64,000 bases of DNA from a virus. Lineage: Duplodnaviria; Heunggongvirae; Uroviricota; Caudoviricetes. A program made the position numbers and the translations under genes. Positions 2,729 to 60,968 of the stretch are shown here, in pieces. Position 1 is the stretch's first letter, and each line of letters opens with the position of its first letter. The notes under the pieces are model-generated. The model saw nothing but the letters and a program-made list of their open reading frames with translations, had not been told where the DNA came from and did no database searches. Where the stretch lies: the IMG/VR virus record IMGVR_UViG_3300029305_004082; one strand, written 5' to 3'.

Positions 2729-2984
2729 ACTTTGCTCCTTCCGTGGGGGTAAAACTTATAACATCCTTATTGGTAAACATAAAGGTGTCGGTTTTTCCAT
2801 TTAACATATCGAACAGCAATGATTCCGCAAAACCGCACTTCTCGATTTCAATAATTCCTTTTTGTATTATCTTAGTGCCGTCTCCTAAAGTGACTTCGAA
2901 AACAACGGGTGCGCCCTCAGCCGGTATTTCATCAAGGTTAAACTTAATTGTCATAAACAACCCACCTTCCGTTTTCATCCACAC
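2718..2984 (-). CDS. hypothetical protein
   Basis: 88-aa ORF, tight overlap with both neighbours. Confidence 0.4.
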   Translation of the reverse strand: MWMKTEGGLFMTIKFNLDEIPAEGAPVVFEVTLGDGTKIIQKGIIEIEKCGFAESLLFDMLNGKTDTFMFTNKDVISFTPTEGAKYDN

Positions 2985-3318
2985 ATTCGACCCGAATATT
3001 AGAAGGGCACATTTGACGCTCTACTTCTTCAAGCATCACAGCGTATTCGCCTGTTCGCCGCATTGTTTCCAGACGAAACCACTGTTTAAAAGACTCTTTT
3101 TCAACAAGGCGCTCAAATGCCTTCTTTTTGTTCTGTTCAAAAGAGCGTTCTTCTTGACATTCTGAAACCGTACCACTGGCGGGATGCGTGATGCGGCACG
3201 CCGACATTGTTTTATTGCGCTTCTGACCGCCATTACCACTTCCTTTAAACGGTTGCACTATAAAATCCCCTTTTTCTTTGGAAAGAGAAAAGAGTAGTTC
3301 TTTATTATTCACAAACAA
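2944..3318 (-). CDS. peptidyl-tRNA hydrolase / class-I release-factor GGQ-domain protein (ArfB/ICT1-like)
   Basis: GSGNGGQKRNKTMSACRITH...VSECQEERSFEQNKKKAFERL matches the GGQ catalytic domain of RF1/ArfB (GxGPGGQxVNKxxS.V.L.H...V.VQ.ERSQ.KN+.KA); 124 aa, about ArfB size. Confidence 0.65.
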   Translation of the reverse strand: MFVNNKELLFSLSKEKGDFIVQPFKGSGNGGQKRNKTMSACRITHPASGTVSECQEERSFEQNKKKAFERLVEKESFKQWFRLETMRRTGEYAVMLEEVERQMCPSNIRVECVDENGRWVVYDN

Positions 3319-16360: not shown

Positions 16361-16376
16361 AGGAGGAAAACTAAAT

Positions 16377-18037: not shown

Positions 18038-18502
18038 ATGTGTAGTGAGTATGAATATGATTCAATAGCAATTATCACGGGGTGTTATCCTTTCGTTGAT
18101 GGCATGAAGCATCTTTGCGGCAGAACTGCAACCGTAATCCGTGTTACTGGCTCCGTATTGAGTCTTGACTTCGACGATAAGAGCGGAGATATAAGCTGGA
18201 ATTTCACGGCAGAAATGATTGATGTAATTGCTAAGAGGGATAGAAATGATGTACAGGTCGGTGACCGTGTAATATTCCGAAACTGGGATGACATGGCCGC
18301 AGAATTTGGTGTTCGTGATGACTTTATTACGAGTCCTATTGTTGTATCCCCAGCAATGATGGAGTTCTGCGGAAAGAAGGCAACAGTAACAGATATTGAC
18401 CGTGGTTATTCAAACACTTATATAAGCCTTGAATTTGACGACCAGAGTATTTCACAAAGCTTCTATTCCATAACCACTGATATGATTGCATTGCTTAGTT
18501 AA
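18038..18502 (+). CDS. tandem-repeat protein (2 x ~75-aa repeat); true 5' end probably upstream of the annotated ATG
   Basis: Repeat 2 begins VGDRVIFRNWDDM; an in-frame copy VGDRVIIRSWENM lies immediately upstream of the ATG with no canonical start codon. Confidence 0.45.
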   Translation: MCSEYEYDSIAIITGCYPFVDGMKHLCGRTATVIRVTGSVLSLDFDDKSGDISWNFTAEMIDVIAKRDRNDVQVGDRVIFRNWDDMAAEFGVRDDFITSPIVVSPAMMEFCGKKATVTDIDRGYSNTYISLEFDDQSISQSFYSITTDMIALLS

Positions 18503-18518
18503 GAGAGGAGAAATTGAT

Positions 18519-27882: not shown

Positions 27883-29001
27883 ATGTGCGAGTACGCATAT
27901 AAATTTCGCATATATCCTACAGATAAGCAGGAACAGCAAATACTTCGCACATTCGGCTGCTGTAGGTATGTCTACAACTATTTCCTCGCGCTGAGGAGAG
28001 ATACGTACGCTGTGGAAAGCAAAACCATAAACTACAATGAGTGTTCCCGACAGCTCACTCTCCTAAAGCCTGCATTGCCCTGGCTGGAGGAAGTAGACGC
28101 AACAGCGCTACAGTCCTCTTTGAGGGCATTGGATACGGCTTATCAGAACTTCTTCGCCAAGATTAAGAAAGGGGAAAAGCCTGGCTATCCTCAGTTCAAG
28201 AGTAAGCGCAGCCCCGACCAGAAATACAAGAGCAAAAACAACAGAGGCACTATCAGAATCGAGGACGGCAAGCTCCGTCTGCCCCTGCTCGGATTTGTCA
28301 AGTGTCGCATATCCAGAGAAGTAAAAGGGCGCATACTCTCAGCTACCGTATCTCGCAATCCCAGCGGTAAGTATTTCGTATCCCTGTGTTGTACTGATGT
28401 AGAAATAGAGCCCTTGCCCCATACTGGTGCTATGGTAGGCGTTGATATGGGAATAAGCTCATATGCTGTCACATCTGACGGGATAGAGTATCCCAATCAT
28501 AAATACTTCGCCCAGTCTGAGAAACAACTGGCGCGACTGCAAAGGCAGCTCTCCCGAAAGACAAAGGGGAGTAATCGGCGCAGTAAGGCCAAAGCAAAGG
28601 TGGCAAGGCTCCATGAACACATACACAACCAGAGGCAGGACATGTTGCACAAGCTGTCTACACAGTTGGTAAGGGAATACGATGTAATCTGCATTGAGGA
28701 CCTGGCACCCAGCGATATGGTTAAGAACCACAAGCTGGCCAAGGACATATCTGACGCAGCATGGGGTGAGTTCAGAAGAATGCTCACCTACAAGGCGGAC
28801 TGGTATGGCAAAGAAGTGGTCACGGTGGACAGGTTCTTCCCATCAAGCCAGCTGTGCTCATGTTGCGGAGCAAAGTGGTCAGGAACCAAAGACCTCTCCG
28901 TAAGAGAGTGGACCTGCCCTGATTGCGGAGCACGTCACAACAGAGACCACAATGCAGCACTAAACATTCTCAACGAAGGTCTGCGCATCTTAGCAACGTA
29001 G
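27883..29001 (+). CDS. tnpB: TnpB (OrfB) RNA-guided endonuclease, IS605 family
   Basis: N-terminal YKFRIYPT...Q...L...FG..RYVYN (OrfB N-terminal HTH), Ruv[21 protein letters not shown], Ruv[14 protein letters not shown]-terminal CxxC...CxxC zinc ribbon. Confidence 0.8.
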
Positions 29002-40105: not shown

Positions 40106-41272
40106 ATGAATTATGTAACTTATCATCTGCATAGCGACAGAAGCCTTTTGGATAGCTGTACGCATTATAAGGATTATATAGATAAGGCGGTTGAATTGGG
40201 ACAACCTGCTATTTGCTTTACTGAGCACGGAAGGGTCTTGAACTGGGTAGCAAAGAAATTGTATTGCGCTGAAAAGGGTATAAAGTATATCCATGGTGTT
40301 GAAATATACCTTACAGAAACATTGGAAGAAAAAGTGAGGGATAATTACCATACCATCCTGATTGCTAAAAACTATGAGGGTGTTAAGGAAATTAACTCTC
40401 TGCTGACTCTATCGGAGCAACCCGACCATTTTTACTATAAAAATAGAATTACCTTCGATGAATTCTTAAATATAAGCGATAACATAATAAGTACATCTGC
40501 CTGTTTGGCAGGACCACTTAATAAACTTCATATTAGTCATCCTTACTATGAAAGGTTAGCTGAAAAATATACCTACTATGAAATTCAGCCACACAACCAT
40601 CCTGAACAAATAGCGTATAATCAGCTTCTTAAAATGCTTGCAAGAAAATACCGCAAGTCGCTTATTGCAGGAACTGATACCCACAGTCTTAATGATTATA
40701 AAGCAGAGTGCCGGAGCATTTTGCAGAAAGCAAAGCATATTGCTTATGCCGACGAAGATAGTTTCGACCTAACTTATAAATCATACGACGAACTTGTTGA
40801 TGCGTTTAGGCGTCAGAATTGTTTTGAAGAAAATGTTTATATAGAAGCTATTGGAAACACAGTAGTAATGGCTGAAAGTGTAGAGGACTTTGAATTAGAT
40901 ACAACCTTCAAATACCCTATGCTTTATGGTTCTTATGAAAAGGACGCCGAGGTATATGAGAAAAGGGTTGCAGAAAAGTTTGCTGAAAAGGTTGAGGCAG
41001 GAGTTATTCCCCAAGACCAGATAATAAATTTCCAGAAAGCGATAGACGAAGAGAGCGCCGTATTTGAGCAAATAAACATGAAGGGCTTTATGCTTTCAAT
41101 GAGCGAGTTTGTTTGTTGGTGCAAGGAAAATGGTATTCCTATCGGGTATAACCGTGGTTCTTGCGGCGGCAGCCGAATTGCTTACATTCTGGATATAACG
41201 GACATGAATCCAGAAACTTGGCATACTGTTTTTTCTCGGTTTGCTAATAGCTCACGAAAAGAAATTGGGGAT
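40106..41272 (+). CDS. dnaE: DNA polymerase III alpha subunit (DnaE-type), exon 1 (PHP domain)
   Basis: HLHSDRSLLD...FTEHG (PHP); ends ...FSRFANSSRKEIGD, aligning with E. coli DnaE FERFLNPERVSMPD. Confidence 0.75.
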
Positions 41273-42452
41273 TAAAACTAACGTTTATCTAACAACTATG
41301 AGTAATCAAGAATACAAAATGACGATTTCAAAGTCAGAAATCATAAGAATACATCAAGAAGAATATATGAATGGGATAAGCACTACTAAACTCGGTAAAA
41401 AATACGAAGTAAGTAGCGCATATTTTTCGAGGTGGTTTAAGAAACTTGGGCTACCTGTAAGAAATAACTCGGATAAATCAAGGAAGTATGTTTTCAACGA
41501 AAACGTATTTGAAAAAATAGATACCGAGGAAAAGGCTTACTGGCTTGGTTTCCTATACGCCGATGGCTATATTATGTCTCGTAGAAAGAACGGTAATCCC
41601 AAGGTGGGGATTACGTTGAGCGTGAACGATATAGGTCATCTCGAAAAATTTAGAAAGTTTGTAAGTGGCGACATGCCTATTAAGATTTATAAGCCGTCAA
41701 AAAGTGGTTATGAAGGTTCTGGTGATTATTGCCGAATTTTAATAACAAGCGAAAAAATGGCGTCCGACCTTATAAGGCATGGTGTGTTAGAGCATAAAAC
41801 AAATGTGCTTAAACCACCTAAACTGCCGCCAACATTTATAAAACATTTTATACGTGGTTATTATGATGGGGACGGAAGTATCTGGTGTCAGTCGAATAAG
41901 AGCGGTAAAGACACTCAATATTCCGTGGGATTTGTTGGCACAAAAGACATGCTTGAATTTATACAGCAGGAGTTAATGAGCCGAAGAATTTTGACCCGTG
42001 AATATCCCATGAGCCGCCGCAGGCCAGATAGTGATGTGTTGCAGTGGAAGTTTGGCGGAAATAATATTGTTATTGATTATTTGATGTATTTGTATTCTGA
42101 TGCCTCAGTTTATTTAGAAAGGAAGCTTAGAAAAGCAGACGGTTTAAAAACGTTAGCATATAGTCGTTTATAGTGGAAACATTATAAATTATTAGGCGGT
42201 GAATTGCTGGAAACTCCTTAGAGCCGCACAAACCACAGCATAGCGGGAAACTGCAGGTGCGACGGTTAGAAAATTGTGCGGATTGGACAATCAGCAGCCG
42301 AGCTTCGTACAGAAGAAGGTTCAACGACTATCCGGCCACGGAGTAGGGGAGACCCGAAGTACCGCCCACCCTAACGTAAAGGCGAGGGTGAAGATATAGT
42401 CTATGCCCAACCTGCAGGTTGTTAAAGTACCGCGAAAGCGGGGGTACAACAG
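41273..42452 (+). mobile_element. group I self-splicing intron in dnaE
   Basis: Starts right after exon-1 terminal U with a TAA stop; ends in G before the exon-2 codon ATA; splicing gives ...RKEIGD|IDIDASPDDRDK..., collinear with DnaE PDFDVDF; 3' part contains GC-rich structured core (…TCAACGACTATCCGGCC…). Confidence 0.7.
41298..42173 (+). CDS. LAGLIDADG homing endonuclease encoded in the intron
   Basis: Two LAGLIDADG motifs: YWLGFLYADGYI and FIRGYYDGDGSI. Confidence 0.75.
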   Translation: MSNQEYKMTISKSEIIRIHQEEYMNGISTTKLGKKYEVSSAYFSRWFKKLGLPVRNNSDKSRKYVFNENVFEKIDTEEKAYWLGFLYADGYIMSRRKNGNPKVGITLSVNDIGHLEKFRKFVSGDMPIKIYKPSKSGYEGSGDYCRILITSEKMASDLIRHGVLEHKTNVLKPPKLPPTFIKHFIRGYYDGDGSIWCQSNKSGKDTQYSVGFVGTKDMLEFIQQELMSRRILTREYPMSRRRPDSDVLQWKFGGNNIVIDYLMYLYSDASVYLERKLRKADGLKTLAYSRL

Positions 42453-44408
42453 ATAGACATAGATGCGAGTCCTGATGATAGAGACAAGATTTATAAATAT
42501 ATAATTGACCGATTTGGTCAAGATAGAGCCGCTTACATACTGGCTATCGGAACCATTTCCGATAAAGGAACTATTGATGAAATCGGCAGAGCGTTAGCTG
42601 AACGTTGGAAAGACGAGCATGAGGGTACGTCCAACGAAATAAATCCATATTCATTAAAAGTTATAAAAGAAGTTAAGGCTTTGTATGAAACGGACGAAGA
42701 GGCGGCTCGTAAAAAGTATCCTGACATATTTTATTATTTTGACGGCATGGTTAATACGGCAATATCACAATCAATGCATCCCGCAGGAATCGTGGTTAGC
42801 CCTATTTCACTGCCTGATAATTATGGTTATTTAACCAAAGAAGATAAGTCAATCCTTCAGATTGATATGGAAGAGATTCACGAAATCAGTCTGGTTAAGT
42901 ACGACATTCTGGGATTGAAAAACGTACAGATTATCCGCGATTGTTGCAAATTGGCAGGAATACCTTATCCTAAATCGCACGAAATCAATTGGTGTGACGA
43001 GGCAGTTTGGACGGACATGCTACGTTCTCCTGTTGGTATTTTCCAGTTTGAAAGTGCTTTTGCTTTCCAGTCGCTATGTAAAATGAAACCTAAAAGCATA
43101 GAAGATATGTCTCTTGTAACGGCGGCAATAAGGCCGTCCGGTACATCATATCGAGACTCACTCTTGCGTAGGGAAATAAATAAAAATCCTTCAAAGATTA
43201 TTGACGACATGTTAGAGAAGAACCTTGGGTTCTTGGTGTATCAGGAAGATACTATTAAGTTTCTCCAAGAAGTGTGCGGACTTACTGGTAGTGAAGCTGA
43301 TAATATCCGCCGAGCCATCGGCAGAAAAGATAAGGAGAGGCTTGATAAAGCCTTGCCGCAAATTCTTGAAGGATATTGTTCCAAGTCAAGCAGCCCCAGA
43401 GAAGTAGCCGAGACAGAGGCAAAGGCGTTCTTGAAAATAATTGAGGATAGCGCTTCATATCAGTTTGGTTATAACCATTCGATTGGATACTGTCTTATTG
43501 GTTACACTTGTGCCTATCTTAGACATTATTATCCATACGAATTTATCACTGCGTTTCTCAACAATGCAGATAACGACGAAGATATAGCAAATGGAGCTTC
43601 GTTGTGTAGAGAGTACGGGATTAGGTTAACATCTCCCAGATTTGGTGTGTCCAGAGATAATTATACTTTTGATAAGAACGGCAAAATTATTGCGATGGGA
43701 GTCTCGGCAATTAAGTTCCTTAGCAAAAAGATTGCGAATCAGCTATACAAAACCTATCAGAACAATCGACTGGATACTTTTGTAGATGTTTTATATGCAA
43801 TTACAGAACAAACGGAGATTGATACGAGACAGCGTGACATTCTGATACACACAGACTATTTCGCAGAATTTGGCGAAATGGGGAAGCTTATTGAGGTTGC
43901 CAAGGCTTTTGATTATTTCAAGAGCGGGAAAGCAAAAAAGGTAAGCAAGGAAAAAGAATGCCCGTATATAAAATTTGTTGCCGCATACGGGAGCGACAAA
44001 AACGCAAAAGGCGCTGAGCTTAAGGCGTTTACAATTGCCGACTGCAAAGGGTTGCTTAAAGCTATAGAGCAGGATATTGCTGAGAGCGACAAGAATGTTA
44101 TTACATATGCCGACCGTGTAGCATGGCAAATGGAATATCTTAATTCTATACAGGGTTCTGGAAAACCCGAAGATAGATGGAAGATATATATTAAAGAACT
44201 TCGTCCTGCGTGTCGCAAGGCCGATGGCAGACAGTTCGGATACAACATAAACTACATTTCACTTGGTAGCGGTAAGTCCGGCACTGCAACGATATTTAAT
44301 AAAAATTTCAAGGAAGGAACAAAGGTTGGCTCCGTACTGCAGACTTCTCAGAGCGGGTGGTCTCGCAACGGTAAGTATTTCAACCTCGACAGATATAGTT
44401 TGATATGA
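42453..44408 (+). CDS. dnaE: DNA polymerase III alpha subunit (DnaE-type), exon 2
   Basis: Frame opens at 42426; IDIDASPDDRDKIYKYIIDRFGQDRAAYILAIGT... HPAGIVVSP ... matches the DnaE polymerase core. Confidence 0.7.
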   Translation: MDIDASPDDRDKIYKYIIDRFGQDRAAYILAIGTISDKGTIDEIGRALAERWKDEHEGTSNEINPYSLKVIKEVKALYETDEEAARKKYPDIFYYFDGMVNTAISQSMHPAGIVVSPISLPDNYGYLTKEDKSILQIDMEEIHEISLVKYDILGLKNVQIIRDCCKLAGIPYPKSHEINWCDEAVWTDMLRSPVGIFQFESAFAFQSLCKMKPKSIEDMSLVTAAIRPSGTSYRDSLLRREINKNPSKIIDDMLEKNLGFLVYQEDTIKFLQEVCGLTGSEADNIRRAIGRKDKERLDKALPQILEGYCSKSSSPREVAETEAKAFLKIIEDSASYQFGYNHSIGYCLIGYTCAYLRHYYPYEFITAFLNNADNDEDIANGASLCREYGIRLTSPRFGVSRDNYTFDKNGKIIAMGVSAIKFLSKKIANQLYKTYQNNRLDTFVDVLYAITEQTEIDTRQRDILIHTDYFAEFGEMGKLIEVAKAFDYFKSGKAKKVSKEKECPYIKFVAAYGSDKNAKGAELKAFTIADCKGLLKAIEQDIAESDKNVITYADRVAWQMEYLNSIQGSGKPEDRWKIYIKELRPACRKADGRQFGYNINYISLGSGKSGTATIFNKNFKEGTKVGSVLQTSQSGWSRNGKYFNLDRYSLI

Positions 44409-45200: not shown

Positions 45201-45371
45201 ATGAATTCAAAAGAACATTTTATAATTTCTATTATAAAGTCCGTGCTTCGTATTGCTGGTTGTCTTGTTGTTGCAGTCTGGGGCGAAGGCACCGTGTTCA
45301 GAACATTCGCCTATTTATTCTGTATGGCTGAAATGGCGGGTATTCTTGAAGAGGTGTTCGACGGGCGATGA
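45201..45371 (+). CDS. small membrane peptide (56 aa)
   Basis: RBS TGGAGGAAAAATG; hydrophobic core SVLRIAGCLVVAVWG. Confidence 0.4.
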   Translation: MNSKEHFIISIIKSVLRIAGCLVVAVWGEGTVFRTFAYLFCMAEMAGILEEVFDGR

Positions 45372-46579
45372 TAAAGATATTGTTCTGCGGTTTTCCATGT
45401 ACCAAATTCAGCATAGCCAATAACAAAGATAGAGAAACCCATCCTTGCAGTGGCGAAGGATGGGAGCTTTTTTACAACGGCCTTCTTGCCAAAGAAAAGT
45501 GGAAGCCCGACTATATACTGTTTGAAAACAACTACAGCATTGCGCAGCCGATAAAGGATGCCGTAAGCGAATGTCTCGGTGTTGGATATACTATGATTGA
45601 CTCTGCAAAGGTGTCGGCACAGCAGAGAAAGCGCTGTTACTGGACAAACTTTGATGTGCCTCAGCCCGAAGACAGAGGAATTCTTCTGCGTGACATTCTG
45701 GAAAGCGGTATTGTGGACCGAGAAAAGAGTTATGCCCTTAAACATCAGCAGGGAAATGCTCGTGATTATATCAAGAAGAACCACACTCAGGTAGCATTTG
45801 AGCCTATTCGTGTAGGTACAATAGAGAACGAAGCACAGCGTGAGGATTTCGACAGTAAACAGTACCGAGTTTACTCACCCGAAGGTAAAGCAACAACACT
45901 CTGCGGACAGGGTGGTGGCGTGGGAGCTAAAACAGGATTGTACGCCACTCCAATAAAGATGTTAACCGAAGGAGAAATGGATTATATGGTGCGTTCCCTG
46001 GCAGATGGACGCACTCATTTTGATTTTGGATATATACAGGACGCAACAAAGGATAAAGGAAAGTGTCTTACCGCCAATATCCACAAAGGTGTGCCATACA
46101 ACGTTTGCATTGAACGTGCTGATGGCACAATGACACCTGTTTATGAGGTGCGGGATGGAGCTATTAAGTATAAGGACATTTGGTATCCGATAAATCTGCC
46201 TGACGGTTATTACATCATCCGCAAGCTGACGGTGAATGAATGCCGGAGACTGCAGACTATACCTGATTGGTACAAGATGCCTGTGTCGGCAACACAGAGT
46301 TACAAGATGCTTGGCAACGGCTGGACAAATGAAGTAATAATGCACATCTTGAGTCAGATTCCCAATATCCAGAATGAAGAAATTGAGGTTCTGTCAATGT
46401 ATGACGGTATGGCCGGTGCCATGATTGCTCTGCGGGAACTCTGTTGTAACGTGGTGCGGTACGACGCATACGAAATAGATAAGTATTGTATCCAGACAGC
46501 AAAGGCAAATTTCCCCGAAATAATACATCACGGCGATGCATTTGAACTGCGGCGTGATGATTGGAGTTTAGATAGATAA
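45368..46579 (+). CDS. DNA (cytosine-5)-methyltransferase with apparently circularly permuted motif order
   Basis: Order along the protein: IV (ILFCGFPCTKFS), VI (ILFENNYSI), VIII (QQRKRCYW), TRD, IX (RKLTVNECRRLQTIPDWY), X (MLGNGWTNEV), then I (VLSMYDGMAG), II (YEIDKY), III (GDAFEL) at the C-terminus. Confidence 0.6.
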   Translation: MIKILFCGFPCTKFSIANNKDRETHPCSGEGWELFYNGLLAKEKWKPDYILFENNYSIAQPIKDAVSECLGVGYTMIDSAKVSAQQRKRCYWTNFDVPQPEDRGILLRDILESGIVDREKSYALKHQQGNARDYIKKNHTQVAFEPIRVGTIENEAQREDFDSKQYRVYSPEGKATTLCGQGGGVGAKTGLYATPIKMLTEGEMDYMVRSLADGRTHFDFGYIQDATKDKGKCLTANIHKGVPYNVCIERADGTMTPVYEVRDGAIKYKDIWYPINLPDGYYIIRKLTVNECRRLQTIPDWYKMPVSATQSYKMLGNGWTNEVIMHILSQIPNIQNEEIEVLSMYDGMAGAMIALRELCCNVVRYDAYEIDKYCIQTAKANFPEIIHHGDAFELRRDDWSLDR

Positions 46580-48482: not shown

Positions 48483-48965
48483 ATGGTTTATGTAAATGGT
48501 GATATTTTAACACCTGTTACAGATGACAGACCGACTATTGTTTGTCATCAGGTAAATTGCAAGGGTGTTATGGGGTCTGGGTTGGCAAAACAGGTGCGAG
48601 CAGAACTTCCTGGTGTATACGAGGTTTATAAGGAAAAGTGTGATGCGGGATTTGCTCGTTTGGGGCAGGTACAAGTATGTAGTGCCATACTCACCACTGG
48701 TTATTTGGTGGCGAATGTGTTTGGTCAGTGGGGATATGGCACAGAAAAACGTCATACGGACTATGAAGCTTTGCGTAATGCATTTACATATCTTGCAGAA
48801 GCATATTCCCAGTACACTATTCGAATTCCGTATAAGATGGGGTGCGGTCTTGGTGGTGGTGATTGGGAAATTGTTGAGTCAATCATTAAGGAAACTTTGT
48901 GCGATAAAGGCATAGAAGTTGAAATTTGGAGGTGTGATAGTAGAAGTGAGAGAAAGGCTGATTGA
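48483..48965 (+). CDS. macro-domain (ADP-ribose binding/processing) protein
   Basis: GDILTPVTDDRPTIVCHQVNCKGVMGSGLAKQV ... RIPYKMGCGLGGGDWEIV matches macro/Appr-1''-pase motifs. Confidence 0.6.
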   Translation: MVYVNGDILTPVTDDRPTIVCHQVNCKGVMGSGLAKQVRAELPGVYEVYKEKCDAGFARLGQVQVCSAILTTGYLVANVFGQWGYGTEKRHTDYEALRNAFTYLAEAYSQYTIRIPYKMGCGLGGGDWEIVESIIKETLCDKGIEVEIWRCDSRSERKAD

Positions 48966-50018: not shown

Positions 50019-50092
50019 TGCCCCATGGTGTAATGGAAGCACATCTGCCTTTGAAGCAGAAGGCCACCGGTCGGTACGGTGTGGGGCAGCCA
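50019..50092 (+). tRNA. tRNA-Gln (anticodon UUG); unusual T-loop
   Basis: Acceptor TGCCCCA/TGGGGCA, D-arm GTGTaatggaaGCAC, anticodon arm TCTGC-cTTTGaa-GCAGA, T-stem CACCG/CGGTG with loop GTCGGTA, G73 then CCA encoded. Confidence 0.6.
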
Positions 50093-50627: not shown

Positions 50628-50710
50628 GCGGATGTGGTGGAACGGCATACACAGCAGACTTAAAATCTGCCGGCGAAAGCTTGCGGGTTCAAATCCCGCC
50701 ATCCGCACCA
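50628..50710 (+). tRNA. tRNA-Leu (anticodon UAA)
   Basis: Acceptor GCGGATG/CATCCGC, anticodon arm GCAGA-cTTAAaa-TCTGC, long variable arm, T-arm CGGGTTCAAATCCCG, A73 + CCA. Confidence 0.75.
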
Positions 50711-50713
50711 AAC

Positions 50714-50788
50714 GCTGGTGTAGCTCAATGGCAGAGCAACTGATTTGTAATCAGTAGGTTGTAGGTTCGACTCCTATCACCAGCTCCA
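50714..50788 (+). tRNA. tRNA-Thr (anticodon UGU)
   Basis: Acceptor GCTGGTG/CACCAGC, D-arm TAGCTCAATGGCAGAGCA, anticodon arm ACTGA-tTTGTaa-TCAGT, T-arm TAGGTTCGACTCCTA, CCA encoded. Confidence 0.75.
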
Positions 50789-51682: not shown

Positions 51683-52059
51683 CACCTGTAATTAACCCTT
51701 GGGTATTTTATTGGCTATCGGTTAGTGATGGCATAGGCGGCGTCCTTACAACGCTCCTGATAAGCTGCGGACTCATCACAATCTTTTTTATATTAAAAGG
51801 CTTTGCAGAGAAAGAAGATTGGCATGACGAGGAGAAAAGCAAGGAAACCTTTAAGCTTGCAAAGCGACTTGGCGTAATACTGGCAATCCTTATGGTTTTG
51901 GATGTCTTTATTCCCACCGCAGATACCATTACCAAAATGATAGTAGCACAAAACGTCACATACGAACGAGTAGAAACGGCAACCGATGTAGTACAAACAG
52001 TATATGAGGACATAATGGACTTGTTTGCGGAAGGAAAGGGAGAACAGCAAGCGGGGTGA
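51679..52059 (+). CDS. two-TM membrane protein (holin-like topology, unproven)
   Basis: Hydrophobic helices VFYWLSVSDGIGGVLTTLLISCGLITIFFIL and LGVILAILMVLDVFIP; RBS GGAAAAGGAG. Confidence 0.4.
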   Translation: MTPVINPWVFYWLSVSDGIGGVLTTLLISCGLITIFFILKGFAEKEDWHDEEKSKETFKLAKRLGVILAILMVLDVFIPTADTITKMIVAQNVTYERVETATDVVQTVYEDIMDLFAEGKGEQQAG

Positions 52060-52210
52060 TAACATGGGAAGAGTGGCTAATGAAGTCAGGAAAAAGACCT
52101 GGCTTCTTTTATATGAAGCAAGGAATACAAATGACCCCGAATATTTAAAAGCCATTATTCAGGAATGTACCAAATTGTTATTCAAATGTGCGGAAAGGAT
52201 AAACGAATAA

Positions 52211-53389
52211 ATGTACGAATATGAAAAAGCTTTGCTGAAAAAGAAGCTTGGCTCGTTTTATGAAACATTCAAAAAACATGATTGTTTCTTGGCCGGTGGA
52301 GCGATAAACAGTCTTTTTACCCATGCCGAAATAAATGATTACGACCTGTATTTCCGCAGTCAGCAAGACCTATATGGTTTTATGACAGAATCCCCGAGTT
52401 CAACTTGGATAATTGCGGATTCAGATAAGTCATTCACGGTGAATATGGGCGGACTTATTGTGCAGCCCATCTTTTTTAGATACTTTGACAACGCCGAACA
52501 GATATTTGAATCATTTGATTTTACCGTATGCATGGGCGCTTTTGATTTCCAGAAAGAAGAATTTGTGTTGCACGAAGACTTCCTCAAGGACATTGCGGCA
52601 AGGCGTTTAGTATTTAATCCTCGCACCGCATTCCCCATAATATCTGCGCTTCGTATCGCTAAGTACAAAGAGAAGGGGTACGAAATCGACAGGCGGCAGT
52701 TTATGCGGATTATGCTTACTGTATCTATGTTGAAGATTACCAGTCTGGAAATGTTGCGGCGGCATCTTGGTGGTATGTACGGCGAAAGCATTGAAGCGCA
52801 TATCAAGATTGACGAGAACGAACCTTTTAACCTCAATAAGATAATTGAGCGCATGGGAGAGTACACCGTCGAAGGAGACGAACGAGAAATACCTACAGTT
52901 TATTTCGAAGATGATTATGAGCTGTATGTAGCCAAGAGAATCGGCATGAAAATTCCCATTATCCAGATAGACAATAAATATTACACTCGCAACTCGACTG
53001 GACTGCGGCGGATAAAACCTGACGCCATAGACGAGAATTTTGTTCTGGATAGAGGTTTCACCGTAAATGAATTCCCAATGGTTAAGTATAAGTGTGTGAA
53101 GAAGATTGGCGATGGTCTGTATCGAAGCTTCTATGATTCCGATTTTGTGTACGAACTTGGACGTGTGGCTGAGGCAAAGAACTGCTATCACGGCCTGTAC
53201 ATGGTTGGCGAAAGTGGCAAGGAGACGTGTCAGTATAGTGATAAAGAGGGTGCCGTAATGCTGAAATTGCTTATTATGGACGCTCGCGATGTGACACCTC
53301 GTGGACTCGGTACTCTATTCCACGGCAGTACAACGGCAGACAGGGTGTACGTAATGGAAGAAATACCTATAAAGAAGGAGAGCGTATGA
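52211..53389 (+). CDS. Pol-beta-superfamily nucleotidyltransferase of the tRNA CCA-adding / poly(A) polymerase head-domain type
   Basis: CFLAGGAINSLFTHAEINDYDLYF ([G][GS]-x11-DxD) like class-II CCA-enzyme head (LVGGAVRD...DiD); third acidic residue in FDFTVCMG; RRLVFNPRTAFPIISALRIAKYKEKGYEID resembles the CCA-enzyme neck (R.LRA.RFA.+LGF.I). Confidence 0.5.
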   Translation: MYEYEKALLKKKLGSFYETFKKHDCFLAGGAINSLFTHAEINDYDLYFRSQQDLYGFMTESPSSTWIIADSDKSFTVNMGGLIVQPIFFRYFDNAEQIFESFDFTVCMGAFDFQKEEFVLHEDFLKDIAARRLVFNPRTAFPIISALRIAKYKEKGYEIDRRQFMRIMLTVSMLKITSLEMLRRHLGGMYGESIEAHIKIDENEPFNLNKIIERMGEYTVEGDEREIPTVYFEDDYELYVAKRIGMKIPIIQIDNKYYTRNSTGLRRIKPDAIDENFVLDRGFTVNEFPMVKYKCVKKIGDGLYRSFYDSDFVYELGRVAEAKNCYHGLYMVGESGKETCQYSDKEGAVMLKLLIMDARDVTPRGLGTLFHGSTTADRVYVMEEIPIKKESV

Positions 53390-53838
53390 GGATTATAAAT
53401 GACGAACCTAACATAATAAAATGCACTGGCTGCAAGGTTAAGCTTGAATATGACGTTGAGGATATACAAGTTGGGGCATGTGGGTGTGCGTACATTAAGT
53501 GCCCTAAGTGTGGCGAGCTAATTTTTTTAGATAGCGAAGTTCATTCAATTATCCTCACCAAAGATAATATTCGGTTTCCTCAGCATTTCTTTGAAGCTGG
53601 CCCCAATGTGGTTAATCTGTCTAACCAAAAGATTAATCAGTACATAAGAGAGTGTATAGATAGCTTGGAAGAGAGAGAGGAGGATTATGGCGGGTATGCT
53701 CTTGCCGGCTCTGGCAATACACTGGTGTTTGCAGTAAAGTACGAGGACGAATACGCAATTTATGTAACAAAAGGATATTACGAATCCAGTATCCCCCGTC
53801 AATCCATGTCCCAAATCACATTTTGTGATATAATATGA
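53386..53838 (+). CDS. zinc-ribbon domain protein
   Basis: CTGCKVKLEYDVEDIQVGACGCAYIKCPKCGEL at the N-terminus; 150 aa. Confidence 0.45.
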   Translation: MRIINDEPNIIKCTGCKVKLEYDVEDIQVGACGCAYIKCPKCGELIFLDSEVHSIILTKDNIRFPQHFFEAGPNVVNLSNQKINQYIRECIDSLEEREEDYGGYALAGSGNTLVFAVKYEDEYAIYVTKGYYESSIPRQSMSQITFCDII

Positions 53839-54320: not shown

Positions 54321-54944
54321 ATGTCGGGTATAGCAAATGTAAAAGTGTACGATATGGAAGAAAGCATTCGGGCCAGTAAGTATCCGATGTCCACAGACAC
54401 AGAGCTTTGTAATTGTGAAATAACCGATAGAACTGAATCGCTGGCGGCTGCCCCAAGAGGGTCAGGCCACGACTGCTTTCTTAAAGGTGTGTTAGTTGCA
54501 TTTGATTTAACGTTTTCTAATAAAGCATGGGTTGAGGCGGAGCGTTATCATTGGTTTGATTTCGTAAGCTCACAATCTACAATGCACCGCATAACCAAAT
54601 TTGATTTAAGCAAAGGATACAATACGTATGTAGACCCTCGCATTGTTGCGATTATGCAAGAGTTGGTTGATGATTATAACGAACTATTTGAGTATAGCAA
54701 GGCCGTAAAGGATGAGCATGAAAAGAAAAGGATGGGCGAGGAGTTGGCGTTAAAGTACCTGCACATCCTGTACTCAAACCCTGCAGGTTTTGAACTTACA
54801 GCACGAATAACAACCAATTACCTTCAGCTTAAAACGATATACGCCCAGAGGCACAACCATAGGCTGCCGGAATGGAGATGGTTTTGTGAATGGATTAAGC
54901 AGAACCTACCCAACAGTCATTGGATTACAGGAGAGGAGAAGTAA
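54321..54944 (+). CDS. ThyX-like (flavin-dependent thymidylate synthase fold) protein with diverged active-site motif
   Basis: HDCFLKGVLVAFDLTFSNKAWVEAERYHWFDFVSSQSTMHR parallels ThyX HETPFEH...[30 protein letters not shown], but RHR is replaced by RYH; 207 aa, about ThyX size; embedded in a dNTP-metabolism cluster. Confidence 0.4.
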   Translation: MSGIANVKVYDMEESIRASKYPMSTDTELCNCEITDRTESLAAAPRGSGHDCFLKGVLVAFDLTFSNKAWVEAERYHWFDFVSSQSTMHRITKFDLSKGYNTYVDPRIVAIMQELVDDYNELFEYSKAVKDEHEKKRMGEELALKYLHILYSNPAGFELTARITTNYLQLKTIYAQRHNHRLPEWRWFCEWIKQNLPNSHWITGEEK

Positions 54945-55363: not shown

Positions 55364-55963
55364 ATGAGCATATATAACAAAAATTGGTCGGTGGTTGTAG
55401 ACGTTGATGAGGTGCTGAACAACCTTATGACGGAAACGATATACCACCTTAAAGAAAGCTTTGCAATTGGAGATGACGAATTATCTCTGGATGACTTTAC
55501 TGAGTACGAGGTAAAGAAATGTGTGACGCCCGATGTTTACAACAAGATGGAAAAGGTTTGGGCCGACAAATCATTCTGGGGTAATCTTGTTCCCTCTGAT
55601 GGAGCAGTTGAAGCAATGCACAAGCTTATCCAGAACGGAATTGAGGTATTTATTATGACTGCTTGTACGCCCGACATTGTTGAAGGGCGCTCAAAATGGT
55701 TTGCAAAATGCTTTCCTTTTATAAAGCAGGAGAACATCATTTATGGCTATCCTAAATGGTTGGTTAAATGTGATTTTATACTCGAGGATAAACTGGAAAC
55801 CGTGATGAGGTCTCCTTCTTGGACGTATCGCGTGCTTGTAGACAAGCCTTGGAATAGGCGCAAATCTGACTTTGATGAAATTCATGGTATTATTCGCACC
55901 AAATCCGTAATGGATGCGGTTGAGCGAATAATTAAGATTGTTGATGATGAGAGGAATTGGTAG
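55364..55963 (+). CDS. 5'(3')-deoxyribonucleotidase (HAD superfamily, NT5C-like)
   Basis: HAD motif I VVVDVDEVLNN (DxDxV); overall size and pattern of phage/bacterial NT5C-type nucleotidases. Confidence 0.6.
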   Translation: MSIYNKNWSVVVDVDEVLNNLMTETIYHLKESFAIGDDELSLDDFTEYEVKKCVTPDVYNKMEKVWADKSFWGNLVPSDGAVEAMHKLIQNGIEVFIMTACTPDIVEGRSKWFAKCFPFIKQENIIYGYPKWLVKCDFILEDKLETVMRSPSWTYRVLVDKPWNRRKSDFDEIHGIIRTKSVMDAVERIIKIVDDERNW

Positions 55964-55965
55964 TT

Positions 55966-58158
55966 ATGGTAGTAAAACGAGACGGAAGGGTTGTGAAGTT
56001 TGATGGTGAAAGGGTTTATGCGGCGGTAATTAAGGCCATGAATGAGTGTGGTGTTAATGACGAGCAGCTTGCAGAAACCATAGCAGAAAAGACAGAAAAG
56101 AAATGTACCGATAAGGATGTTGGTGTTGAACAGATACAGGATTGGGTTGAAGAATACCTGATGGCATCTAAGTACAAGGATGTGGCGAGAGCGTACATTA
56201 AGTATCGTGATAGGCGTAACACGGTGCGTGAACGTAATGCCGAACTGCACCGCAAGATTAAGAATATTCTGGAATGCAATAACACCCAGAACAGCAATGC
56301 CAATGTAGATGAGTTTTCTTATAGTGGCAGAAAGTTTGAGAGCGCAAACGCCATGCATAAGGATTTTGCCCTCAACGAATACATGTCGCCCGAGGTAGCG
56401 GAGGCCCACAGGGAAGGCCGTTTATACAACCATGACCTGAGCGAGTATGACGTAGGTTCCCACAACTGTTTGTTTGCAGACGTAGCAAAACTCCTCAACA
56501 ATGGTTTTACCACCAGAAACGGGGATGTGCGTCCCGCAAACTCATTCTCAACGGCATGTCAGCTTGTGGCTGTTATTTTCCAGATACAGAGTCAAGTACA
56601 GTTTGGCGGCTGTGCTTCTGCGCACCTTGATTATGACCTTGCTTCTTTTGTTCGCAAGAGCTTTGCAAAGAAGTTGCGTGACGGTATCAAATGGGTAGAA
56701 GGTGTTGAGCCTCATGTTCCCGATGAAGTGGATATTGCCGACCCCGTTTGGAGCGAAGGCCATCCTGCGGCACACAGGTATGCTATGAGTATGCTTGAAA
56801 AGGAACTGGCACAGTCTTGTCAGGGTTTATTCCACAACCTCAACACGCTGGAAAGCCGCGCAGGGTCTCAGGTGCCTTTCACCTCTATTAACTTTGGGCG
56901 CGACACTTCTCCAGAGGGAAGGATGGTTATTAAACATCTTCTGGAAGCAAGTTTGGACGGCATTGGCAAGCATCATAGAACCCCCATTTTCCCTATATCT
57001 ATTTTTAACTACAAGAAGGGCGTTAATGATAAGCCCGGTACTCCCAACTACGACATGAAACAGCTTGCCATCAAGTCTCTGTCGAAGCGCATTTATCCTA
57101 ATATTGTTAACGGTGATTGGAGCCGCAACGTGGATGACCCCGACAATCCCGACACCTATATGGCTACTATGGGTTGCCGCACTCTGCTCGGCAAGGATAG
57201 GCACGGTCTTGGCTATTCCAAGATTGGTCGCGGCAACGTGTGTCCTGTAACAATGAATCTTCCCGCAATCGGCATTAACCATGGTATTTGCCTTGGTGAA
57301 AGAACTGAACCCGACCTTGACGGATTCTGGGCCGAGCTGGATGAAGTGCTTGCGCTCACCGAAAAGGCGCTCATCGACAGGTTCTATCACATTTGCAGCC
57401 AGAGTGTTAAGTCCGCGCCTTTCATGTATGATAACGGTACTATTGCGGATGCCGAAGCCGCTCGTGAGAAGGGCATATACGAAGCTATGAAGCATGGCAC
57501 ACTGGCAATCGGCTATATCGGCATTGCGGAAATGTGTAAGGCTTTGTTTGGCAAGTACCACGATGAGGATGAAGATGTGCTCAGGTTTGCTGTGAGTGTT
57601 GTAGAACATATTGCAAACTACGTAAATGAAGCCGCAGAACGTAACAACCTGAACTTCTCCTGTTATGCCACTCCCGCAGAAAGCCTGTGCAAGACTTTTG
57701 CTGAATCCCTTAAAAAGAAGTACGGCGTAATCGAAGGTGTATGTGATAGGGAATACATCACTAATTCTCATCACGTTCCTGTGTGGGAAAAGGTTTCTAT
57801 TTACCGCAAGCTTGAAATCGAAGCTCAGTTCTGTAAGTACCCCACTGGCGGCTGCATTACCTACATTGAACTGGAAAGTTCCGTGGTAAATAACCACAAG
57901 GCTATTGAGGATATTATTGACTACGCTATGTCTCTGGATATCCCTTACCTCGCATTCAATTTCCCCATTGATTCCTGCCTTGCTTGCGGCTATCAGGGCG
58001 AAATCGAAGAAAACTGTCCCGCTTGCAACGGTACAAACATAGAGAGACTGCGCAGAGTAACTGGTTATCTTACTACGGACTATCGTAATTTTAACGATGG
58101 CAAGATTGCTGAGTGTCTCGACAGAGTAAAACATTCTAAATACACGGAGTTTAAGTAA
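55966..58158 (+). CDS. nrdD: anaerobic ribonucleoside-triphosphate reductase NrdD
   Basis: N-terminal ATP-cone (VVKRDGRVVKFDGERVYAAVIKA), C-terminal Zn site CLACGYQGE...CPACNG and glycyl-radical motif RRVTGYL. Confidence 0.85.
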   Translation: MVVKRDGRVVKFDGERVYAAVIKAMNECGVNDEQLAETIAEKTEKKCTDKDVGVEQIQDWVEEYLMASKYKDVARAYIKYRDRRNTVRERNAELHRKIKNILECNNTQNSNANVDEFSYSGRKFESANAMHKDFALNEYMSPEVAEAHREGRLYNHDLSEYDVGSHNCLFADVAKLLNNGFTTRNGDVRPANSFSTACQLVAVIFQIQSQVQFGGCASAHLDYDLASFVRKSFAKKLRDGIKWVEGVEPHVPDEVDIADPVWSEGHPAAHRYAMSMLEKELAQSCQGLFHNLNTLESRAGSQVPFTSINFGRDTSPEGRMVIKHLLEASLDGIGKHHRTPIFPISIFNYKKGVNDKPGTPNYDMKQLAIKSLSKRIYPNIVNGDWSRNVDDPDNPDTYMATMGCRTLLGKDRHGLGYSKIGRGNVCPVTMNLPAIGINHGICLGERTEPDLDGFWAELDEVLALTEKALIDRFYHICSQSVKSAPFMYDNGTIADAEAAREKGIYEAMKHGTLAIGYIGIAEMCKALFGKYHDEDEDVLRFAVSVVEHIANYVNEAAERNNLNFSCYATPAESLCKTFAESLKKKYGVIEGVCDREYITNSHHVPVWEKVSIYRKLEIEAQFCKYPTGGCITYIELESSVVNNHKAIEDIIDYAMSLDIPYLAFNFPIDSCLACGYQGEIEENCPACNGTNIERLRRVTGYLTTDYRNFNDGKIAECLDRVKHSKYTEFK

Positions 58159-58673: not shown

Positions 58674-59210
58674 ATGAATACAAGATTTGAAGTATTACAG
58701 GAAGATGCGGTAATGCCTATCCGCGCTACAAAAACTTCCTGTGGTTATGACTTTTATGCAACTGAGGACATAAAAATTCCTCCGCAGACCGCCGTTAAGT
58801 TTAATACTGGCATTGCGGCGCACATTAACGATGATGAGTTCCTGATGATTGTGCCTCGCAGCAGTATCGGCATTAAGCGTCATCTGATGCTTTCCAATAC
58901 AGTTGGTGTAATCGACAGTGATTTTATTAACGGTGATACCAAGGGTAATATTATTATAAGCCTGTACAATTACGCTCCTGCGATTAAGTATGACGGAGAT
59001 ATGGAAATAGATGTTCGTGATGTTTACATAAATTTTGGTATTAAGAGAATTCCTATTCCCGTAATAATTGACCTTACAGAAGAGAATACTGTTTATATCC
59101 AGAAAGGGGAGCGTGTGGCTCAGGGCATAATACTGAATTACAACGTAATGGATGAAGACAACTGCAGTCAGAGCGAGCGTACAGGCGGCGTTGGCAGTAG
59201 TGGAAAGTAA
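58674..59210 (+). CDS. dut: dUTP diphosphatase (trimeric dUTPase)
   Basis: Motifs PRSSIG, GVIDSDF, GERVAQ, ERTGGVGSSG. Confidence 0.75.
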   Translation: MNTRFEVLQEDAVMPIRATKTSCGYDFYATEDIKIPPQTAVKFNTGIAAHINDDEFLMIVPRSSIGIKRHLMLSNTVGVIDSDFINGDTKGNIIISLYNYAPAIKYDGDMEIDVRDVYINFGIKRIPIPVIIDLTEENTVYIQKGERVAQGIILNYNVMDEDNCSQSERTGGVGSSGK

Positions 59211-59212
59211 CA

Positions 59213-59245
59213 TTACGGCGGGGGCAACCCCGCCTTTTTTATTTT
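59213..59245 (+). terminator. rho-independent terminator
   Basis: GGCGGGGGCAACCCCGCC + TTTTTTATTTT. Confidence 0.7.
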
Positions 59246-59254
59246 GGAGGAAAA

Positions 59255-59394
59255 TGTTTGAAAAAAGCTTTGCGGAAACATTATTAGAATTGTTGTGTGA
59301 TGATTATGTTTTAACAGAAGAAGAAACAGGTCTTGCTATAGCAAACATCCAGGTGTATTATGATAGCATAGAACACAAAAGGAGAGAAACATGA
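59255..59394 (+). CDS. small protein (46 aa)
   Basis: RBS TTGGAGGAAAATG; overlaps the integrase start. Confidence 0.3.
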
Positions 59395-60968
59395 GAGCCT
59401 GTTTTTACGCAAGAGTTTCCACAGAAGAAGAAAAGCAAGCTGACGCTCTGGTAATACAATGCCAAGAGTTGCGGGACTTTATTGCGGAAATGGGATGGGA
59501 ATTGGTGCGGGAGTATGTTGATGAAGGTAAGTCCGGCACAACAATAAAGAAAAGAGATGAATATCGAAACCTGTACAATGACCTCGGGGAAGATATCTTT
59601 GACGTGGTTGTAATTAAGTCGCAGGATAGGTTGATGCGTAGTGCAAAAGACTGGTATACTTTCCTCAGCCGCATGGTTGAAAATGGGAAGAAATTATACT
59701 TTTTTATTGACCGCAAATTCTATCAGTCTGATGATAGCTTGATTACGGGCATTAAGGCGATACTCGCAGAAGATTATAGCCGAGAACTTTCCAAAAAGAT
59801 AAATAATGCAACTCGCACAAGACAAAAGAATGGGTCGAGTATTATAACGAATGGCTCTATGTGGGGGTTCGAGCAGAAAGACGGAGAGCTTATTGTTGTG
59901 CCCAAGGAAGCTGAATTAATACGGCGCATATTTAAAATGTATGCCGACGGTATGGGCGCACGCAGAATAAAGGCTACTCTTGATGAAGAAGGTGTTGTTT
60001 CCAGAAGAGGAACCAAAATTGGCCTTACTACATTAAAGAGGATGATAAGCAATCCTATTTATTATGGCACCGTAGTTCAAAATAAACTCCACTTTGATTT
60101 TGACACAAAGAAGATTAATCGTGTTGACGAAAAGGAGTGGGTATGGCACGAGAATAGGGTTGAACCTATCGTATCAAAAGAATTGTGGGATAAGGCGAAC
60201 GAACAAAGAGTTCGAAACACAACCAGTGACGGAACTGCGCGGCGTGGTATTAAGAGAGGTTCTTATCCACTGTCCAGTAAAATAGTGTGCGGCGATTGCG
60301 GCGCAAAATATCATCACGTATACCGCATTTTTGCCAGAGGAGAGAATTTGCCCTGTTGGATTTGCGGCACCTACCAGAATTATGGAAGGAAGCACCCGCA
60401 AGGAAAACCTGAGCGGACAATGGGTTGCGACAATCCGTTGGTGCGGCAAGATTACCTTGATGAAATATTCGCTAAAATTGCGGAGAATTACGAGGAAGAC
60501 TTCGTGCGTGGCCTGCAGGTTGCTATGAAGGCTATTGCGGCTGCAATTAGTTCCGGCGCGGCAGAAAAAGAGATTGCGGAATTGCGGCAAAGGTTACAGG
60601 AAGTGGAACATAAGAAAGAGCTTTTGCTGGATAATCTGTTAGATGGTACAATAAGTAAAGAAATGTACGCCAGAAGAAATGCTAAGTTTGAAGATGATTG
60701 TGCGGCATTGGAAGAAAAGATTGCCAGACTGGAAGAAACCAATAGGAAGAGAGGAAGCATAGAGAATAGACTTAATAAGATAAAAGAAGAAATAGAAAAT
60801 ACCTATGATAAAAAAGCTCGTGTTGCAACTATAATGAACCACGTTGAGTGCGTTACAGTTTACAGCGACAAGGTGACTATTAAGCTTGATATGTTAAAGG
60901 ATGTTGTGGAAGTTGTTGACGGCAATGTTCCCGCAGAAGAACGCTATAAAATTGTATCGGTAAATTAA
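59391..60968 (+). CDS. large serine recombinase (integrase)
   Basis: N-terminus CFYARVSTEEE (catalytic Ser), resolvase domain, recombinase domain, zinc ribbon (CGDCGAKYHH...CWICG), C-terminal coiled coil; 525 aa. Confidence 0.8.
   Translation: MRACFYARVSTEEEKQADALVIQCQELRDFIAEMGWELVREYVDEGKSGTTIKKRDEYRNLYNDLGEDIFDVVVIKSQDRLMRSAKDWYTFLSRMVENGKKLYFFIDRKFYQSDDSLITGIKAILAEDYSRELSKKINNATRTRQKNGSSIITNGSMWGFEQKDGELIVVPKEAELIRRIFKMYADGMGARRIKATLDEEGVVSRRGTKIGLTTLKRMISNPIYYGTVVQNKLHFDFDTKKINRVDEKEWVWHENRVEPIVSKELWDKANEQRVRNTTSDGTARRGIKRGSYPLSSKIVCGDCGAKYHHVYRIFARGENLPCWICGTYQNYGRKHPQGKPERTMGCDNPLVRQDYLDEIFAKIAENYEEDFVRGLQVAMKAIAAAISSGAAEKEIAELRQRLQEVEHKKELLLDNLLDGTISKEMYARRNAKFEDDCAALEEKIARLEETNRKRGSIENRLNKIKEEIENTYDKKARVATIMNHVECVTVYSDKVTIKLDMLKDVVEVVDGNVPAEERYKIVSVN

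Follow-up and report, generated by a model that had tools for sequence, protein, structure and literature searches.

The DNA analyzed here (hereafter, the window) is a 64,000-nucleotide stretch of IMG/VR virus record IMGVR_UViG_3300029305_004082, a member of the Caudoviricetes, and corresponds to the part of a large, uncultured phage genome devoted to replication and nucleotide metabolism; this phage has no close deposited relative. On the plus strand, at positions 52211..53389, lies a 392-amino-acid open reading frame (ORF) with an ATG start. By sequence, the encoded protein is a divergent, previously undescribed member of the already known Gad2 anti-Gabija family (PF26128), with its anti-Gabija activity inferred from homologues. 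Gabija consists of the OLD-type nuclease GajA and the helicase GajB. The original prediction, made from the DNA letters and their translations, had taken the protein for a CCA-adding-type nucleotidyltransferase (NTase) that belongs to a module for the repair or protection of the translation apparatus; it spotted the NTase and its fold class correctly, and its functional reading is very probably wrong.

Identification as a member of the Gad2 family

PF26128 (Gad2; E <= 1e-5) is the family given in a precomputed annotation for a protein identical to that of the window, and PF26128.2 is carried by 120/120 database homologues among the matches listed. When 50,697 phage records were searched by tblastn, matches were obtained to the coding sequences that SPbetaL6 and SPbetaL7, two Bacillus phages, have under the annotation Gad2, and a BLASTP alignment to SPbetaL7 Gad2 (WIT28108.1) extended over residues 2-355 of 392 at 35% identity (E 3e-61). 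Because the ORF has hundreds of homologues, with identities from 94% down to approximately 30%, and exact copies of its product occur on 8 metagenomic contigs, it is not a chance ORF. IMG/VR holds 278 relatives of the protein.

Neither the window protein (0 Pfam families at E <= 1) nor a profile of the Gad2 family had a match in local Pfam, NCBIfam or PDB-sequence searches. The local Pfam copy does not include the PF26128 model, and bona fide Gad2 is also unmatched there; the Pfam blank is therefore a gap in the library and not evidence. In PHROGs, the window protein matched families of unknown function and one weak 'nucleotidyltransferase' PHROG. A PADLOC match to Cas6 (E 0.006, 14.7 bits) was treated as chance.

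The definition of Gad2 goes back to Yirmiya et al. (bioRxiv 10.1101/2023.05.01.538930), in whose work deletion of gad2 rendered SPbetaL7 fully sensitive to Gabija, a homologue from a Brevibacillus prophage abolished Gabija defense, an NTase domain was predicted in Gad2 by AlphaFold, and SPbetaL7 Gad2 proved toxic upon expression in bacteria. The homology between this protein (400 amino acids) and the window protein is near full length. The SPbetaL6 and SPbetaL7 proteins share with it both the invariant GG/DxD/D103 core and the C-terminal motifs YK.V...S.YD..F.Y, and in each case the gene is phage-encoded and stands alone: the window holds a phage replication module, and no conserved neighbor of Gad2-like genes was found across 81 loci. 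The settings differ, in that SPbeta phages keep gad2 in a dedicated anti-Gabija locus, whereas the window gene lies between tRNAs and nucleotide-metabolism genes of a ~110-kb uncultured phage that is unrelated to SPbeta and has no close match among deposited phages.

Nucleotidyltransferase head and neck

An alignment of 68 homologues served as the basis for all invariance counts and for an AlphaFold2 model of the window protein, which was obtained with a mean predicted local distance difference test score (pLDDT) of 88.7 and a predicted template modeling score (pTM) of 0.80. In the model, residues 1-120 (52211..52570, plus strand) form a head domain with the alpha/beta core of Pol-beta NTases, mostly at pLDDT >90. 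Residues 121-215 (52571..52855, plus strand) form a helical neck, including T139-x-F-P142-I-I-S145-x-L-R148-x-x-K151-Y152, and are followed by a poorly conserved linker (residues 216-244; 52856..52942, plus strand) at pLDDT 50-75, with residues 222-226 below 50.

The NTase signature noted in the original prediction is real, with a spacer of 12 residues rather than 11, and reads A28-G29-G30, the spacer, and D43-Y44-D45. The corresponding motif A (G29-G30-x12-D43-x-D45; 52295..52345, plus strand), which holds the metal-binding carboxylates, is spaced as in E. coli Cca and PcnB, and G29, G30, D43 and D45 are invariant in 68/68 homologues. So is D103, the third acidic residue, which the original prediction had placed on a later strand. 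It is part of the motif-B equivalent S101-F102-D103-F-T-V-C-M-G-A-F-D112 (52511..52546, plus strand), which was placed by the hhalign register to class-II 'RRDhTINAhA'. In the neck, residues T139, P142, R148, K151 and Y152 are invariant, and the peptide ISALRIAKYKEKGYEID (residues 144-160) profile-aligned to the class-II 'PLRxLRxxRFxxxLGFxI' helix, which bears out the proposed resemblance of the neck to class-II enzymes.

Structure comparison agrees with this resemblance. The best 46 Foldseek matches of the AlphaFold2 model were all class-II tRNA NTases. The fold comparison figures were 10.5-12.8 for class-II CCA-adding and poly(A) polymerase (CCA/PAP) enzymes and 9.7 for TENT5B, followed by 7.7 for an isolated CCA head domain (2la3), ~6 for ANT(2''), LnuA and MenT1, 4.8 for cGLR1 and 4.3 for DncV. 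CD-NTases (cGAS/DncV-like) were not the best structural or profile match of the window protein, and the predicted fold class thus held against both the CD-NTase and the kanamycin-NTase alternatives: the head and neck have the class-II CCA/PAP three-dimensional fold. Class-II enzymes, such as those of B. stearothermophilus (1miv) and T. maritima (3h37/5hc9) and E. coli PAP I (3aql), share with the Gad2 family the motif A GG-x12-DxD, the 'D-F-T-[IV]-x-[AM]' core of motif B and the 'LRxx[KR][FY]' neck helix. The TENT5/FAM46 non-canonical poly(A) polymerases, unlike Gad2, are eukaryotic, without sequence similarity, and have another C-terminal region. As judged from the alignment and the model, the NTase site is intact, with a two-metal GG...DxD motif and the invariant D103 set in a class-II head and neck.

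Missing features of CCA-adding enzymes

A class-II CCA/PAP fold and class-II spacing of motif A would suit a phage enzyme that adds CCA to tRNAs or mends their 3' ends and, acting alongside the neighboring phage tRNAs, restores tRNAs damaged by host acceptor-end or anticodon nucleases. We regard this explanation as highly improbable. The PF01743 profile, which had been put forward as a check of the prediction, and the PF12627 profile matched neither the window protein nor Gad2-family proteins, while E. coli Cca (69.8 and 54.8 bits, respectively) and PcnB (141.9 and 73.5 bits) passed in the same Pfam search. When six class-II proteins were used as tblastn queries, no Gad2-like gene was matched in the Gad2-like loci searched, and no genuine class-II enzyme was found in the window or near Gad2-like genes.

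In order to map the class-II motifs, the family profile was aligned to E. coli Cca/PcnB and then to a six-member class-II alignment that included four phage tRNA NTases. The register was identical in the two profile-profile alignments and extended over about 170-200 columns, and a hidden Markov model search of Cca and PcnB with the family profile recovered motif A alone. In motif A, the GG-x12-DxD of class II is found with identical spacing in the Gad2 family. The longer class-II pattern GGxVRD-x(6-8)-DxD is matched as well, but its 'VRD' part is 'I[TN]S' in the family. Motif B, K-R-R-D-L-T-I-N-A-L-A in class II, is E-S-F-D-F-T-V-C-M-G-A in the family; none of the 68 sequences has an Arg at position 101 (T/S/D/A) or 102 (invariant Phe), whereas RRD is invariant in 6/6 class-II controls. 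Motif D, A-F-G-E-D-P-L-R-V-L-R in class II, is A-F-P-(gap)-I-I-S-A-L-R in the family, and EDxxR is absent from it, since '[ED]DPxR' aligns to 'P--I[IV]S' with the E and D gapped and the R exchanged for S145 (alignment probability 6-12%). The helical tRNA-binding body and tail are absent as well, residues 245-392 being beta-rich with fold matches mostly of the ADP-ribosyltransferase (ART) type rather than to class-II bodies.

Ribose recognition in class-II enzymes is the task of RRD, and the choice of CTP or ATP is made by EDxxR, which acts as an amino-acid template. Without RRD and EDxxR, Gad2 is therefore not expected to build CCA. The window protein is very probably not a CCA-adding enzyme.

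C-terminal domain

Residues 245-392 (52943..53386, plus strand) were modeled at pLDDT 94.7 as a beta-rich domain with a tentative, weakly ADP-ribosyltransferase-like fold, in which Y293, K294, V296, S306, D309, Y314 and Y342 are conserved and K294, V296 and S306 are invariant. The canonical H-Y-E or R-S-E triad was not found in this domain, and its similarity to ART-fold proteins (PARP catalytic domains, Tpt1/KptA, Arr, TreTu, AcrF11) is weak. The sole candidate catalytic Glu is the consensus E352, which is a Lys in the window protein. Residues 352 and 383 covary among the 68 sequences (E-R in 47, K-E in 13, R-E in 2 and E-K in 2), a pattern that fits a charge-swapped salt bridge between neighboring strands of the model. 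The covariation therefore supports the AlphaFold2 model and suggests that E352 is structural rather than catalytic. In the model, this conserved, beta-rich and weakly ART-like domain, which lacks a catalytic triad, stands where class-II enzymes have their tRNA-binding body and tail.

The domain is common to the window protein and SPbetaL7 Gad2. When the C-terminal domain by itself was compared exhaustively, by phmmer, with 1.84 billion representative proteins, 13 matches resulted, essentially all of the Gad2 type, and no other architecture that carries the domain was found in that search. Among 80 viral loci, 40 match via the C-terminal domain, 6 do so partly and 34 match in head and neck only. 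Because of this split, we consider the NTase module to be the core of the family, and the C-terminal domain to mark the subfamily with the validated Gad2 and the window protein.

Since the active site is intact and the motifs by which class-II enzymes select base and ribose are lost, the donor or the acceptor must differ from those of class II. One explanation of this kind is nucleotidylylation of a protein (e.g. AMPylation of GajA or GajB) or the synthesis of a small nucleotide product that would keep the nucleotide-regulated GajA off. The nuclease activity of GajA is inhibited by nucleoside triphosphates, and the conserved C-terminal pocket (K294, S306, D309, Y314, Y342) could bind a nucleotide or an NAD-like ligand. 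However, the best fold matches are by a wide margin enzymes that modify the 3' ends of polynucleotides, and the match extends to the neck, in which the primer end is held. Moreover, SPbetaL7 Gad2 is toxic without Gabija, which argues for a cellular substrate besides GajAB. We therefore find protein nucleotidylylation or small-nucleotide synthesis rather unlikely.

tRNA genes and their linkage to gad2

The predicted tRNA cluster was confirmed by both ARAGORN and Rfam. It comprises tRNA-Gln(UUG) at 50019-50092, tRNA-Leu(UAA) at 50628-50710 and tRNA-Thr(UGU) at 50714-50788, all on the plus strand, and lies 1.4-2.2 kb upstream of the Gad2 gene (1.4 kb for tRNA-Thr(UGU)). This proximity, and the retention of two of the tRNAs in a relative whose Gad2 is 63% identical (L093, which has no tRNA-Thr), would favor tRNA repair, as would the finding that the Gabija relatives P2-OLD and PARIS AriB are tRNases (PMC12445682). 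Against such a role, all three window tRNAs already encode their 3'-CCA, and the damage done by P2-OLD, amputation of the anticodon arm, cannot be mended from the 3' end (PMC12445682).

Across the family, the linkage dissolves. A tRNA occurs within 10 kb of the gene in only 7/80 IMG/VR loci encoding relatives, no tRNA lies near the gene in SPbetaL7 or in Klebsiella phage KP13-16, and adjacency is confined to close relatives of the window phage; tRNA linkage was accordingly rejected as a family feature. Bona fide class-II tRNA NTases are encoded by 474-488 phage records. One such phage, Escherichia phage 4MG (KF550303.1 / NC_022968.1), has a Gad2-like gene (58730-59590) in addition to a true tRNA NTase (101315-102550), ~42 kb apart, which also speaks against tRNA repair as the task of Gad2.

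The tRNA-Thr(UGU) is the isoacceptor destroyed by P2-OLD, a relative of GajA, and phage tRNAs can replace it (PMC12445682). A role for the window tRNA-Thr(UGU) as an OLD-resistant decoy was considered and is unsupported. With an anticodon stem of ACUGA/UCAGU, it has retained the paired CNG motif and A37, and because these P2-OLD cleavage determinants are kept it is no obvious decoy. A literature search found nothing that links GajA to tRNA. By likeness to the tRNases P2-OLD and PARIS AriB (PMC12445682), tRNA is still conceivable as an acceptor for Gad2.

Neighboring genes

Gene order in the window runs from a ParB-like nuclease, an exonuclease, a DnaB helicase and an intron-split DNA polymerase III alpha to a C5 DNA methylase (45368-46579), continues with a DarG-like macro domain, the three tRNAs, Gad2 and a translationally coupled 150-amino-acid Zn-ribbon protein, and ends downstream with DUF3310, NT5C, NrdD, NrdG, dUTPase and a serine recombinase. 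A 61-amino-acid ORF (52025..52210, plus strand) ends directly before the Gad2 start and is 92% identical in two relatives, L093 and L094. The Zn-ribbon gene (53386..53838, plus strand) has a start codon that overlaps the Gad2 stop (ATGA). It accompanies Gad2 in close relatives and is absent from 81 other Gad2-like loci, and its product is possibly a lineage-specific partner of Gad2. Scans for promoters and terminators gave counts equal to those in shuffled sequence.

Comparison with L093, a syntenic phage of 111 kb, separates the Gad2 region from its flanks. Identity is 63.1% for Gad2 and 62.7% for the Zn-ribbon protein (window 52211-53838 versus L093 8001-9631) and 72.7% for the macro protein, versus 97.6% for the polymerase, 98.2% for the methylase, 98.0% for NT5C, 88.2% for dUTPase and 85.0% for the recombinase. 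The Gad2 and Zn-ribbon genes may thus diverge together as a unit, and the apparent acceleration of divergence in the Gad2 region is as expected of arms-race genes. A mobile gene without conserved neighbors, gad2 belongs in this phage to a rapidly evolving accessory segment that separates the replication genes from those of nucleotide metabolism.

The macro domain and an ArfB-like GGQ protein had been joined with the tRNAs and the NTase into a translation-repair module, and this grouping was not supported. The macro-domain protein is present where it was predicted (48483..48965, plus strand; PF01661, E 1.4e-6). Its best NCBIfam match is the macro half of DarG (NF048014, E 6.7e-16), and it fails the DarG equivalog cut-off (58.5 versus 250 bits) since it consists of the macro half only. 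This match suggests that the protein counters DarT-type DNA ADP-ribosylation and is not related to translation. At only 6/81 loci does a macro homologue lie 10 kb or less from a Gad2-like gene. The GGQ protein (124 amino acids; 2944..3318, minus strand) does contain an RF-1 domain (PF00472, E 1.8e-16, 60.5 bits), but it fails the NCBIfam ArfB equivalog (22.1 bits versus a cut-off of 100), and its best NCBIfam matches, to RF1, PrfH and RF2 at ~53-54 bits, are all below their cut-offs. It is encoded ~49 kb from Gad2 on the opposite strand. Taken together with the scarcity of tRNAs at related loci, these results fit better with an accessory stretch enriched in counter-defense functions (methylase, macro domain, tRNAs and Gad2) than with a module for translation repair.

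Membership of the GGQ protein in a PrfH-RtcB2-type repair pair was likewise rejected, as the neighboring 399-amino-acid protein has no Pfam match and is not RtcB. This protein, upstream of the GGQ gene at 3974-5173 (minus strand), belongs to phrog_2467, of unknown function.

Several further observations concern other genes of the window. Two ORFs, at 40106-41275 and 42681-44408 (plus strand), make up the interrupted gene for the DNA polymerase III alpha-like protein; they match phrog_405 positions 42-444 and 528-990, respectively, and a group I intron (42144-42423, plus strand; Rfam RF00028, 87.1 bits, E 7.8e-21) lies in the gap between them; L093 has one uninterrupted polymerase gene of >1040 amino acids. 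Compared with L093, the locus is a mosaic. The C5 methylase of L093 carries an intein (Hint_2), whereas that of the window does not. In place of the ThyX (PF02511) of L093, the window has an unrelated 207-amino-acid protein (54321-54944, phrog_6721, unknown function), and the NrdD genes (55957-58158 in the window) share merely 23.5% identity over 200 residues. Elsewhere in the window, an Amidoligase_2-domain protein (16299-17927, plus strand; PF12224, E 5.6e-9) has a neighbor (18486-19643, plus strand) with a weak match to class-II glutamine amidotransferases that falls below the cut-off (PF13230, E 2.6e-4), and a transposase-like gene (27883-29001, plus strand; phrog_506, E 4.6e-141) is situated within the phage replication region.

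Proposed mechanism

Considered as a whole, the best explanation is that the window protein is a Gad2-family phage counter-defense enzyme with a class-II head and neck, for which we propose catalytic nucleotide transfer, and we judge this explanation to be probably correct. The broad idea of a counter-defense gene in the original prediction was right in spirit.

Gad1 has the same anti-Gabija role as Gad2 and is interchangeable with it at one locus in SPbeta-like phages (bioRxiv 10.1101/2023.05.01.538930). Unlike Gad2, which is a predicted enzyme, Gad1 cages GajAB, and the two proteins have no sequence similarity. In contrast to Gad1, Gad2 is hypothesized to act catalytically rather than as a stoichiometric binder. 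It would transfer nucleotides in a template-independent manner onto a nucleic-acid 3'-OH, as every close structural relative does, and recognition of the substrate would fall to its C-terminal domain. Gabija is reported to act at linear DNA ends lacking RecBCD activity and to block genome circularization (Hong et al., PMC12407980; PMC12904381), and because Gabija is placed at such ends, the preferred acceptor would be phage DNA termini or linear DNA ends. As the outcome, Gabija would fail to recognize or process its target.

A different explanation of the same enzyme anatomy is that Gad2 is a general RNA-tailing (poly(A)/TENT-like) or MenT-like toxin enzyme for host takeover, which tags host RNAs or tRNAs and has an indirect anti-Gabija effect in some phages. 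The toxicity of expressed SPbetaL7 Gad2 (bioRxiv 10.1101/2023.05.01.538930) would agree with such a role, as would the cytotoxicity at high induction of a Pseudomonas phage NTase annotated as Gad2 (bioRxiv 10.64898/2026.09.15.751885). However, loss of gad2 has a specific effect, in that the phage becomes Gabija-sensitive yet stays otherwise viable, and a non-toxic homologue inhibits Gabija fully (bioRxiv 10.1101/2023.05.01.538930). The rapid, lineage-specific divergence of the gene, typical of arms-race genes, also argues against a general tailing enzyme, and we consider this explanation very unlikely.

Returning to Gad2 as a catalytic anti-Gabija enzyme, the fold and the lost motifs allow for a more far-reaching, tentative scenario. 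Gad2 enzymes may descend from class-II tRNA NTases, have lost the CCA selection motifs, have gained an ART-like module, and now beat OLD-family defense by covalent 3'-end modification, either of the phage DNA termini, which would thereby be concealed from GajAB, or of tRNA if Gabija, in the manner of its relatives P2-OLD and PARIS, has a so far unrecognized activity on tRNA. We hold this scenario to be possible but unlikely.

Several points weigh against the explanation that we prefer. Identity to the validated Gad2 is only 35%, and the anti-Gabija role of the window protein is predicted from homologues. No close prophage relative that would point to a host, and to its Gabija status, was found in 185,579 species genomes, and distant relatives are mainly Bacillota prophages. 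The mapping of motifs B and D is non-significant on sequence alone (hhalign probability 12% and 6%), though it agrees with the fold match. With regard to mechanism, a February 2026 review describes that of Gad2 as 'yet to be elucidated' (PMC12904381), and our literature search found no later mechanistic work on Gad2. The choice of DNA 3' ends as acceptor is inferred from the fold class in combination with recent models of Gabija.

Conclusions

That a phage protein has a CCA-enzyme fold, even when its gene adjoins tRNA genes, does not imply tRNA repair, and annotations of such genes should be read with this in mind. The anatomy of the window protein narrows the hypotheses on the mechanism of Gad2 and names residues that bear on it, namely an intact metal site, the lack of RRD and EDxxR, and a pocket formed by K294, S306, D309, Y314 and Y342. 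The presence of the gene suggests that this uncultured phage probably meets Gabija-armed hosts. If the more far-reaching scenario of 3'-end modification is true, Gad2 would be the first anti-defense protein shown to work by template-independent end-tailing.

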